Shown piece by piece: positions 2,123 through 51,612 of a DNA stretch of 64,000 nucleotides. Numbering within the stretch: position 1 is the stretch's first letter; each line of letters opens with the position of its first letter. Source of the stretch: Bacteroidota bacterium (GTDB taxonomy: Bacteria > Bacteroidota > Ignavibacteria > Palsa-1295); contig JAUZNX010000009.1 of assembly GCA_030706745.1 (NCBI GenBank), forward strand, positions 58,740 through 122,739, in the 5' to 3' direction. The notes under the pieces are model-generated. The model worked only from the letters and a program-made list of their open reading frames with translations, made no database searches and was not told where the DNA came from. A program made the position numbers and the translations under genes.

Positions 2123-2268
2123 AAGCGGTATAAAAATACGACAATTCGGGCTGAGCTATTCCAAAAATGTTGTGAGATTGGTTAGGAGCCGGGATCTTTG
2201 GCACGAGCACGAACTCGCTGCTGTTCTGCCAGCGCAATTTTGGACTTGCGGGAACGCGCTTCTCGGAG

Positions 2269-2320
2269 TTTTCAAGAAAGTGGTGCCATTATGAAAATTA
2301 AACTCAAATATTCAAATTGA
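2269..2320 (+). repeat. AT-rich dispersed repeat, copy A
   Basis: TTTTCAAGAAAGTGGTGCCATTATGAAAATTAAACTCAAATATTCAAATTGA matches the reverse complement of 51481-51532 at 44/52 positions (hand alignment). Confidence 0.75.
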
Positions 2321-2351
2321 GTCGGCTTTTCTTTCCATGTGAAGGAGAATT

Positions 2352-2405
2352 ATGAAAAACAAACTCAATTCTCAAACAACTAAATACCTCCAAGAAAGAA
2401 AATGA
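2352..2405 (+). CDS. Possible 17-aa upstream micro-ORF MKNKLNSQTTKYLQERK
   Basis: GAAGGAG at 2341-2347 precedes the ATG; its TGA overlaps the next ATG (ATGA, 2402-2405). Confidence 0.3.
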   Translation: MKNKLNSQTTKYLQERK

Positions 2406-2761
2406 AGATCAAGCTCCTCGATATTTGTCATGCACGTTCGGGCGATAAAGGCGACGCGGCGAATGTGGGTCTCATCGCTCGCGAAGAGCGCTACTATCCC
2501 CTCATCAAGGAAAAGGTGACGCGCGCGGCGGTCAAGAAACACTTTAAGGGGATTTGCCTGGGTCCGGTCGAGCGATACGAACTACCGAACCTTTGGGCGC
2601 TCAACTTTCTGCTGCACAACACGCTCGGTGGTGGGGGCACAGTGAGCTTGAAGCAAGATGCGCAAGGCAAAACGCTTGCGGCGGCGTTACTCCGAATGGA
2701 GATCGATGTGCCTCCAGCTTTGATGCGTCCGCTGAAGGTGAACGGTCGGACTAAGAAGTAA
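2402..2761 (+). CDS. Stand-alone AtuA-like C-terminal (ferredoxin-fold) domain protein
   Basis: HARSGDKGDxANVG and LGGGG...DAQGK motifs. Confidence 0.8.
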   Translation: MKIKLLDICHARSGDKGDAANVGLIAREERYYPLIKEKVTRAAVKKHFKGICLGPVERYELPNLWALNFLLHNTLGGGGTVSLKQDAQGKTLAAALLRMEIDVPPALMRPLKVNGRTKK

Positions 2762-50249: not shown

Positions 50250-51401
50250 TTATGGAAGGGGTCCAAGGAAATTATCGATATGGATCGTATCCGCAGGCTG
50301 GAACGTCTGCAACAGTTTGCCTTTTCGCCACGCATTATCGACCTTAAAATATCCATAGACCCCCTTGGCCAGCGTCAAGCTGTCAAAGATCACGATCTGC
50401 TCTGTCGCAGGCAGGAAGCGCTCGCCTTCACCATGCTCGAGCGCGCGGTCAAGTTCCAAACGACTTTGGTACATTCGCGGCGATACGAAAAGCTGCACTT
50501 CCCGTGGAAGTTCGATCACGATCATACCCGGCGCTTGGCTTCTTTGCGCCGCTTTCTGTATAGTCTCGGGTTTCGGAACGGACGGTGCATGCACCAGGGA
50601 GCGCACCAGATAGTACACAATCGCCGCAGCCAGGACAATACTTGGAATCGCCCACAACCGCCGCGATTGCCAGCCGGAAATCGCACCTCGGATCGACATG
50701 TGGTCCACCTCCGACACCTGCGTTGCCCGATCGTGGCGAGCATTCGTCTCACTATGCTCGAATGCGTTGCGCTCGAAAGCTTCGGCCAGAATTTCCATCT
50801 CGCCATTCGTCAGCGCCTGCGATTTTTGGTCCATCGCTCGCAGCAAATTCGGGAGGTGCGAGATGTTCCGGGCAAGCGCAAAATCCAAAGTCATCGAGGC
50901 GAATGGCTGGCCATTCTCACCGGATTCTACGCGGATTTCCCGGACCGGGCCGTTAAAAATCGCCACAAGCGAGGTCGTCAAGGCACCATCATGACCCAGC
51001 CGCTCAGCGAGCGATTCGAGCTCTTTCGACGCATTCTGCAGGGTTTCGAACGGATTTTCGAAGCTCGAGCGCACATGCGCGGGACTTTCCAAAAGCCACG
51101 CGCCACGACGCGAGCCTCGAATTGACCCCGACTCGCCGTAAAACGCCACCAAGCCGATGCCGCGCGACCAAAGCACCGCAAAATGATCGCGCCCGAGCGA
51201 GGTCGGCTGACGCACCAGATGCAGGATTTCCCGGCTATGCGCGGCAAATTGCTCCGCCACATCGGCGATTCGTAGCAATGCCATCCGATTCTCCTCCAGC
51301 GAGAATTCGGGGCCGGTCACGCGAACATCGAGCACGGGGTTGTTTTGGTTGGGTTGCCTGTCCGAAGCGCAACGATCATGCAGCGAAAGAGTAATGTTCA
51401 C
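50250..51401 (-). CDS. Membrane protein with degenerate NERD-like N-terminal domain
   Basis: DHFAVLWSRGIGLV...GSIRGSRRGAW...FENPF resembles the NERD layout; one TM; periplasmic C-terminal domain; start uncertain. Confidence 0.6.
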   Translation of the reverse strand: MNITLSLHDRCASDRQPNQNNPVLDVRVTGPEFSLEENRMALLRIADVAEQFAAHSREILHLVRQPTSLGRDHFAVLWSRGIGLVAFYGESGSIRGSRRGAWLLESPAHVRSSFENPFETLQNASKELESLAERLGHDGALTTSLVAIFNGPVREIRVESGENGQPFASMTLDFALARNISHLPNLLRAMDQKSQALTNGEMEILAEAFERNAFEHSETNARHDRATQVSEVDHMSIRGAISGWQSRRLWAIPSIVLAAAIVYYLVRSLVHAPSVPKPETIQKAAQRSQAPGMIVIELPREVQLFVSPRMYQSRLELDRALEHGEGERFLPATEQIVIFDSLTLAKGVYGYFKVDNAWRKGKLLQTFQPADTIHIDNFLGPLP

Positions 51402-51480: not shown

Positions 51481-51612
51481 TTCATTTTAGTATTTGAGTT
51501 TGTTTTTAATAATGGCACCATTTTCTTGAAAAGAAAAGTATACTTCCCTCGGTTCATTTTAGCATTTGAGTTTGTTTTTCATGAACCGCGTTCCCGATTT
51601 TTTGAATAACTC
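51481..51612 (-). repeat. AT-rich dispersed repeat, copies B1/B2
   Basis: 30-mers at 51481-51510 and 51553-51582 differ at 2 positions; homologous to 2269-2320 and 2352-2368. Confidence 0.75.

Follow-up and report, generated by a model that had tools for sequence, protein, structure and literature searches.

The window analyzed here, a 64,000-nucleotide stretch of a Bacteroidota genome (C30:58740-122739 of assembly G000, which comprises 3.81 Mb in 30 contigs), contains two AT-rich intergenic regions that carry members of one short repeat family. The family is dispersed through this genome, occupies non-orthologous positions among related species, and is built from interchangeable modules, one of which has lost half of its palindrome in G000. 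We consider it probable that the family is a genus-restricted, modular, non-coding interspersed repeat of the same kind as BOX, the enterobacterial repetitive intergenic consensus (ERIC) and the bacterial interspersed mosaic element (BIME), and that it has partly been reused as a 5'-region cassette. In the following, the loci in G000 are lettered A-H, congener genomes carry labels in the style G001-G013, and cut-out stretches carry L numbers; public records containing the repeat are labeled as Candidatus Kapaibacterium, Ignavibacteriota or Bacteroidetes metagenome-assembled genomes (MAGs).

The initial annotation had singled out the two window loci, A and B, because of their mutual similarity, and its coordinates and counts were reproduced throughout. 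Positions 2269-2320 share 44 of 52 letters with 51481-51532 read as reverse complement, and the 17-mer ATGAAAAACAAACTCAA, with up to three mismatches, is found at 2291(+), 2352(+), 51510(-) and 51582(-), that is, four times against an expectation of 0.15, a number reached in 0 of 100 shuffles. The shorter shared blocks GAGYTATTCMAAAAAT and CGGGAACGCGSTTC, the latter at 2249(+) and 51596(-), were likewise confirmed. Aligned locally, the two spacers reach a best score of 37, while dinucleotide shuffles yield a mean of 11.2 (sd 1.7) and a maximum of 18. Both spacers have a GC content of 41-44% in a window of ~54%, both lie between divergent open reading frames (ORFs), and in each the repeat is directed at the gene on its own strand. 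Locus A is flanked by a gene for a BNR/sortilin-like secreted protein and by an AtuA-ferredoxin-like gene (hereafter atuA-like), locus B by an orphan 383-aa ORF and a glycosyltransferase gene. The parts of both loci are as follows:

2153-2168, plus strand: short shared block GAGCTATTCCAAAAAT, whose minus-strand partner is GAGTTATTCAAAAAAT (51612-51597)
2249-2262, plus strand: CGGGAACGCGCTTC block, the upstream module (consensus CGGGAACRCG), 16 nt ahead of the TCAAG of unit A1
2269-2326, plus strand: unit A1, TTTTCAAGAAAGTGGTGCC-ATTATGAAAATTAAACTCAAATATTCAAATTGAG, a half-palindrome core with A-rich tail and without left arm (nhmmer E=8e-14)
2329-2401, plus strand: unit A2, a degenerate second unit TTTTCTTTCCATG...ATGAAAAACAAACTCAATTCT... 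that reaches the ATG of the atuA-like gene and is 87% identical to copy C over 106 nt
2402-2761, plus strand: gene of an AtuA ferredoxin-like domain protein, downstream of locus A (context only)
51597-51612, minus strand: GAGTTATTCAAAAAAT, the counterpart of the block at 2153-2168
51583-51596, minus strand: CGGGAACGCGGTTC block
51551-51585, minus strand: partial unit B1, tail only, TTCATGAAAAACAAACTCAAATGCTAAAATGAACC, straight after the CGGGAAC block and without the half-palindrome
51481-51537, minus strand: unit B2, (TTTTC)TTTTCAAGAAAATGGTGCC-ATTATTAAAAACAAACTCAAATACTAAAATGAA, with ATT instead of ATG (nhmmer E=3e-12)
50250-51401, minus strand: ORF of 383 aa downstream of locus B, without a Pfam family (context only)

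Read on the opposite strand, the block at 2153-2168 is TTTTTGGAAT and resembles the TTTTTGAATTTT block that stands ahead of CGGGAAC in copies C and D.

Combined pattern, BLAST and nhmmer searches show that these two loci are part of a larger family: in G000 there are seven full units (E from 1e-12 to 1e-14) and five partial ones, i.e., 12 units in non-coding intergenic sequence at eight loci, including four tandem pairs whose units are spaced 61-72 nt apart. The unit of ~60 nt reads TTTTCAAGAAARTGGTGCC-ATTATKAAAAnnAAACTCAAATAyTAAAATG in G000; in general, the core TTTTCAAGAAARTGGTGCC is followed by an A-rich tail with the consensus (A/T)TTATKAAAAnnAAAC(T/G)CAAATAyTAAAATG. An upstream block, (TTTTTGAATTTT)CGGGAACRCG, is common to A, C and D, often precedes units and accompanies pairs. 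The eight loci are:

Locus A, window 2269-2401, plus strand: tandem pair at the atuA-like gene
Locus B, window 51585-51481, minus strand: tandem pair at the orphan 383-aa ORF
Locus C, C25:44.7k: tandem pair immediately upstream of a thiolase gene
Locus D, C25:202.3k: tandem pair in the space that separates the stop of a secreted-protein gene from the terminator of a convergent outer-membrane-protein gene
Locus E, C12:7.5k: single unit at a secreted-protein gene, with a gene resembling a REP (repetitive extragenic palindrome)-associated tyrosine transposase (RAYT) ~75 nt off
Locus F, C5:69.4k: single unit upstream of a gene for a sigma factor of the extracytoplasmic function (ECF) type
Locus G, C18:3.1k: tail only
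Locus H, C1:487.5k: tail only, 262 nt upstream of dnaK

The secreted protein at locus D has a C-terminal tail of the type IX secretion system kind, as judged by eye only. The flanking genes (atuA-like, thiolase, ECF sigma factor, dnaK, secreted protein, orphan ORF) are functionally unrelated. When 42 distinct units are sorted by spacer, 13 fall into divergent, 6 into tandem co-oriented, 6 into convergent and 5 into tandem anti-oriented spacers, so that every intergenic type is occupied and none is excluded. Two of the loci share more than the unit itself: across 163 nt, A matches C at 80% identity, with the similarity ending at both start codons.

In congeners, the unit belongs to a larger architecture. 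In most congener copies, the core constitutes the right arm of a palindrome of ~30 nt, GGGCACCC-GTTTTCAAGAAAAC-GGGTGCC, which is succeeded by TTTATKAA and has folding energies of -12 to -19 kcal/mol (z from -3 to -6.6). In G000, the left arm is missing from all seven full units, whose folds do not surpass those of shuffles (z ~0); a stem-loop is thus available to congener copies and to no G000 unit, and the loss of the left arm in every one of them marks the G000 units as decayed derivatives unable to form the hairpin. Within 22 hairpin-type copies, 95% of the stem cells pair, compared with ~50-60% when the partner is slid, and in the same 22 copies no pair has changed on both sides, covariation being no higher than in shuffles. 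Consequently, an RNA or single-stranded-DNA hairpin is indistinguishable here from a conserved DNA dyad. The congener palindrome is itself one block of a longer mosaic with a sigma-70-like promoter of its own, whose blocks are ordered TTGACT-N17-TATATT, GGGCACC box, heptamer repeats, TTCATTAAATGA... block, hairpin and tail: L014/L105 display the order TATATT, GCACC, TTCATGAA, TTCATTAAATGACAATTCAATTGA, hairpin, tail and AATGGCGAAATTGGCTCGGAATCGAGGGTGATTATGAATTTGAAA, and identical blocks occur in other combinations in L093, L097, L100, L102, L104, L114 and L136. In A-H, G003, L014, L093, L104 and L136, the CGGGAAC block is assembled in differing ways with the half or full palindrome, the tail and a TTCATTAAATGA block.

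The phylogenetic range of the family is narrow. Searching 13 congeners for the 24-nt core with up to three mismatches retrieved 0-8 copies per genome, with copies present in 11 of the 13 and none retrieved by the reversed-pattern control, and 26 further genomes from its family and class yielded none. The refuting condition set by the initial annotation, a lack of additional copies genome-wide and a similarity within the range of shuffled controls, does not hold, given loci C-H in G000 and these congener copies. A scan of all GTDB species representatives with the exact core pattern gave only one match outside the genus, on the Rickettsiaceae MAG contig Ga0190276_102 (L021/L140); we rejected it as a chance match because it lies inside a coding region of an AT-rich genome (34% GC) and is not accompanied by the flanking blocks. 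Viral contigs yielded 0 matches and metagenome contigs 10.

Within the genus, the positions of the units differ between relatives. Upstream of the atuA-like orthologues the unit is absent in 14 of 14 congeners, whose upstream regions are mutually unrelated, and the side of the glycosyltransferase gene that bears locus B varies among congeners. No DNA-level counterpart of the 383-aa ORF was found beside the conserved glycosyltransferase gene in the 14 congeners. Several congeners have an apparent membrane-protein ORF in its place, as judged from DNA by eye. At the sigma-factor locus of G003, the unit is replaced by CGGGAACGCG and a GTTCATGAAC block, i.e., by another set of modules. The exception is the thiolase site, which is common solely to G000 and G003, the closest relative, in which the gene is 84% identical. 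There, G003 has kept the left block and the degenerate second unit, so that both flanking modules are retained; in the middle, GTTCATGAACTCCAAACAAAAAAGAGAGA (the TTCATGAAC...AAAAGAGAGA block) stands in place of the half-palindrome unit of G000. The remaining congeners have wholly different thiolase upstream regions. The comparison indicates that inheritance of the composite is possible across short distances and that change comes through the replacement of modules. The tail tells a similar story: the variant AAACTC occurs in all G000 units and in the copies found in G003 and G010, whereas AAACGC or AAATGC occurs in the copies found in G001, G004, G007, G012 and G013. Copies that are alike within a genome and different between genomes point to recent copying rather than to anciently fixed sites.

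The larger, promoter-bearing mosaic of which the core forms a module in congeners is also abundant in G000 outside the window. We located ~49 copies of its block TTCATTAAATGACAAyTCAAAAGAGAGAA (e.g., L052, C1:361800-362500; L053, C23:237450-238050; L054, L055 and L057). A typical copy of this parent repeat starts with TTGACT/TTGCAC-N17-TATATT, followed ~15 nt later by GGGCACC; optional heptamer repeats (ATATGAA, GATGAAG) and CTCATTGACAA come next, and after them the TTCATTAAATGA block, an AT hairpin (TTAAAGTATTACTTTAA) and a second GGGCACC box. Copies lie upstream of sucC, metK, rpsP, rplY, clpB, lexA, amt, oppD and many other genes, and at least 10 are instead directed, across 100-140 nt, at the 3' end of a gene in convergent orientation. 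We counted 21 copies in G007 and 11 in G003, both genomes having a species-specific variant (GACAAyTCAAAAGAGAG in G000 corresponds to GAACACTCAATTGAGAG in G007); none was found in two other congeners or in 76 genomes of other genera of the class. Six parent copies searched against Rfam gave no match, and RNAalifold, applied to 20 copies, supports the AT hairpin alone, and that weakly. Homology of the unit with the abundant repeat within G000 itself was considered and rejected, as a hidden Markov model of the GGCGAAATTGGCTC...ATTATGAATATGAAATTC block misses the units; the link between the two is drawn from the adjacency of their modules in congeners and from the thiolase locus of G003. We additionally observed direct heptamer or octamer repeats upstream of genes, namely ATATGAA(GT), GATGAAG(G) and ATGACGA/ATTACGA (L052 at metK, L057 at rpsP, L127/L132 just ahead of the thiolase ATG in G004 and G007), and among the upstream direct repeats of these stretches a threefold CTCAGCA right before a start codon. 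These resemble heptamer direct repeats reported from intergenic DNA of other bacteria, e.g., TAACTGA in Beggiatoaceae.

According to the reading that we favor, that of a modular interspersed repeat, the family would have spread and been reshuffled within the lineage by duplication of, or recombination between, modules, a process in which a trans-acting single-strand (Y1) transposase may take part. The whole 5' cassette of ~160 nt would have been reused before two unrelated operons, that of the atuA-like gene in the window and that of the thiolase gene. Any effect on neighboring genes would be incidental and dependent on context: close to a gene start, the unit may provide an A/U-rich leader that bears a start codon, and the hairpin-bearing form may provide a terminator-like stem. 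The proposal of the initial annotation that the spacers harbor a mobile intergenic module therefore holds in so far as the element is multi-copy and modular, has unrelated neighbors, occurs in all spacer types, shifts its position between relatives and shows lineage-specific variants; its mobility is putative, as neither a mechanism of mobilization nor a pair of empty and filled sites was found.

Several observations weigh against this reading. Comparison of A, C and D with their flanks revealed neither terminal inverted repeats nor duplicated flanks, and the sole other contig with the locus is identical and thus offers no contrast between a filled and an empty site. For a selfish repeat, 0-8 copies per genome are few. 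Of 34 classifiable contexts, 22 have a co-oriented downstream gene and 12 do not, a mild bias, and the G000 loci A, B, C and F lie immediately 5' of a gene, an arrangement that would also suit a cis-regulatory role. The motif GGGAAC-N16-TCAAG in A, C and D resembles an RpoE-type ECF promoter, in which a GGAAC -35 element and a TCAAA-type -10 element are 16-17 nt apart; E has GGGAAT-N15-TCAAG. Finally, the core is near-invariant across species and its right half was kept after the loss of the left arm, as would suit a selected protein-recognition site; since copies were retrieved by pattern, however, this apparent conservation of the core is inflated.

With regard to a possible Y1 partner, G000 encodes seven Y1_Tnp genes, all flanked by other hairpins. 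The RAYT-like Y1_Tnp gene near unit E (C12:6724-7419, minus strand, Pfam E=1.8e-7) has its own REP, ACGTGTAG-GTGCAAGCTCCnGCTTGCAC, on both sides and a five-fold tandem array of 32 nt downstream (C12:6400-7490; L007 ~390-1480). Besides this neighbor of unit E, three more genes are RAYT-like and three are canonical IS200-like genes of 155 aa; different hairpins flank each of them. A canonical Y1_Tnp gene also lies ~750 nt from a G001 copy. By a rough estimate, the chance that a unit lies as close as unit E does to any of the seven Y1 genes is ~0.015.

Among the alternatives, we give the most weight to a reused promoter and 5'-untranslated region (5'-UTR) cassette, although we judge it unlikely on the whole. 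According to this explanation, TTTTTGAATTTT-CGGGAAC-N16-TCAAG would be an alternative-sigma (ECF/RpoE-like) promoter from which transcription begins close to GGTGCC, and the tail would act as an A/U-rich leader whose coupled short ORFs (MVPL-stop overlapping MK(N/I)KLKY-stop; in A, a 17-codon ORF) deliver ribosomes to the downstream gene, so that all carriers would be co-regulated. The promoter-like motif of A, C, D and E and the orientation bias of the downstream genes speak for it, as do the homology of A and C up to their start codons, the high conservation of the left part of the thiolase cassette between G000 and G003, the over-representation of divergent, promoter-rich spacers (13/30), and the linkage of the micro-ORFs by ATGA overlaps; moreover, the thiolase gene, hbd (L008) and the atuA-like gene could share a role in acyl-CoA metabolism. 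Outside the repeat, however, the motif does not exceed its control: a genome search for GGGAAC-N15-17-TCAAR returned four matches, three of them repeat copies and one another site, compared with three for the control, which speaks against an independent ECF regulon. Furthermore, B2, D2 and F are without the -35-like block, the G003 thiolase locus has GGGAAC but no TCAAG, the spacing is 18 in hairpin-type copies, and D, L004, L005 and L013 point at the 3' end of a convergent gene. The presumed start codon of the short ORF, ATG, is ATT in 9 of 40 units, peptide lengths are not conserved, and the sigma-70 scan produced nothing convincing. The sigma-factor gene at locus F has another conserved promoter-like piece.

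Most congeners retain this piece, 68 nt in length (L003:1618-1685, C5) and containing TGTAACC-N16-CGTTGGTCTTA, upstream of their orthologue of the sigma gene, and further occurrences lie at other places in the genomes; it resembles an ECF promoter by which that sigma factor would regulate its own gene.

The short reading frames merit a remark of their own. Window 2284-2405 contains a chain of short ORFs joined by ATGA overlaps, in which GTGGTGCCATTATGA (VVPL-stop) overlaps ATGAAAATTAAACTCAAATATTCAAATTGA (MKIKLKYSN-stop); the GTGGTGCCATTATGA ORF starts with ATG in those copies that have AAAATGG. A 17-codon micro-ORF in unit A2 (2352-2405) ends with a TGA that overlaps the ATG of the atuA-like gene at 2402 (ATGA). 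A leader peptide MKNKLKY-stop as the function of the family was rejected and is kept only within the promoter-cassette explanation: the peptide recurs, but its start codon and ORF length vary as described. A protein-coding composite was rejected as well; A, C and D have an open frame that begins at TTG and passes through the unit, and a 2-nt length difference breaks this frame in L013.

A further explanation, which we also regard as unlikely, enlarges the view to the parent repeat: the unit would belong, as a single module, to an undescribed promoter-leader cassette that propagates itself in Kapaibacterium-like bacteria, a mosaic of ~250 nt with its own TTGACT-N17-TATATT promoter, a GGGCACC box set at a constant ~15 nt from the -10 element, heptamer repeats and two palindromes (TTCATTAAATGAA and a GC hairpin), which has been copied before ~50 housekeeping genes per genome and whose palindromes are recognized by a conserved trans-acting protein, either a Y1 transposase or a global regulator. 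If true, a promoter-leader cassette would both move and impose common control on many core genes.

The initial annotation had also offered paired operators of one regulator. In this explanation, which we deem improbable, the core TTTTCAAGAAAATGGTGCC would be the half-site and GGCACC-N16-GGTGCC in congeners the full dyad of a dimeric regulator or nucleoid-associated protein that binds tandem pairs cooperatively. It would account for a core that is near-identical across species whose orthologous genes are only 70-84% identical, for the dyad-symmetric form in congeners, for the paired units 61-72 nt apart, and for stems that pair without compensatory changes, which means that sequence and not pairing is conserved. 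Yet the sites are not retained at orthologous genes (14 congener orthologues are without the unit), the flanked genes have no function in common, some copies lie between convergent genes, and the lineage-specific variants shared within a genome are what recent copying predicts, not independent maintenance; the conservation of the core is, as mentioned, inflated by pattern retrieval. For the same reasons, i.e., positions not kept at orthologues, incoherent functions and convergent contexts, we do not classify the units as sites of a transcription-factor regulon.

The third suggestion of the initial annotation, a small RNA or structured leader RNA family, is highly improbable: the parent repeat has its own predicted promoter and in at least 10 G000 cases faces a convergent 3' end at 100-140 nt, like a self-contained transcription unit, and congener units form a stable hairpin followed by UUUAU, but neither window locus nor any of six parent copies matches Rfam, the folds of the G000 units do not surpass shuffles, the scans of the window loci yielded no promoter-terminator pair, and the hairpin shows no covariation, the RNAalifold consensus of the parent being weak.

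In the searches behind this verdict, both loci reached at best 12-23 bits in Rfam 15, with gathering scores of 35-100; a tRNA gene (39315-39387, minus strand) is the sole match in the whole window at gathering score. The promoter and terminator scans of both window loci returned one weak minus-strand promoter-like site and no terminators. An intrinsic terminator was therefore rejected for the window loci, both of which lie in divergent spacers; some congener copies, e.g., L087, do fit one. By-eye checks against consensus sequences also led us to discard a sigma-54 or Bacteroidota -33/-7 promoter, in which spacing or key bases misfit, and a dif/Xer site, which misfits and should be single-copy. 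A MITE (miniature transposable element with inverted repeats) was rejected in view of the missing terminal inverted repeats and target-site duplication and because no autonomous partner was identified.

Comparison with known systems places the family closest to small modular repeats. The pneumococcal BOX (boxA-boxB(n)-boxC), RUP and SPRITE elements are small, intergenic, modular interspersed repeats restricted to a species group (Croucher et al. 2011, PMC3049150). The family resembles them in being non-coding and intergenic, in combining interchangeable modules in varying combinations and numbers, and in its narrow range, with near absence from the rest of the genus or family; co-transcription with its neighbors may be another parallel, as may stem-loop formation in congeners, and no dedicated host function is evident. 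BOX comprises more than 100 elements, whereas G000 has 12 units, far fewer, and has lost the palindrome; unlike BOX, RUP and SPRITE, moreover, the family is connected to a parent mosaic repeat with a sigma-70-like promoter, and there is no sequence similarity.

A second point of comparison is provided by putative mobile promoters and promoter reuse, for which Correia and ERIC elements have been named as promoter-bearing repeats (Nijveen, Matus-Garcia and van Passel 2012, PMC3575422). The cassette of 163 nt before the non-homologous atuA-like and thiolase genes, ending at their start codons, corresponds to this picture, and so do the ~49 parent copies with TTGACT-N17-TATATT upstream of sucC, metK, rpsP, rplY, clpB, lexA and others, whose promoter activity is predicted. 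In contrast, the units of the window family have no recognizable sigma-70 promoter, and several copies face no gene.

With REP/REPIN-RAYT systems and the BIMEs of Escherichia coli, the family shares a short intergenic palindrome, a mosaic with other motifs (BIMEs) and the presence of Y1_Tnp genes in the genome. Unlike REP/REPIN, it has no conserved 5' GTAG, no Y1 gene is bracketed by the unit, its copy number is far lower, the G000 units are non-palindromic, and the neighboring RAYT-like gene has a different REP array, GTAG-GTGCAAGCTCCnGCTTGCAC. Because the 5' flanks of the palindrome vary and the Y1_Tnp genes are flanked by other hairpins, we did not assign the family to this class.

The look-alike spacers of the window are copies of a lineage-restricted repeat, and annotating them as a regulon or as a small RNA should, for this reason, be avoided. 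They provide a concrete case in which a 5' region of ~160 nt appears to have been reused before two unrelated operons, i.e., of promoter or leader reuse, and the orthologous thiolase locus in the sister species shows the swapping of modules in place. The larger promoter-bearing mosaic repeat, apparently undescribed, fills the upstream regions of many core genes in this uncultured group, and the prediction of promoters, 5'-UTRs or regulons in Kapabacteria-type genomes must reckon with it.

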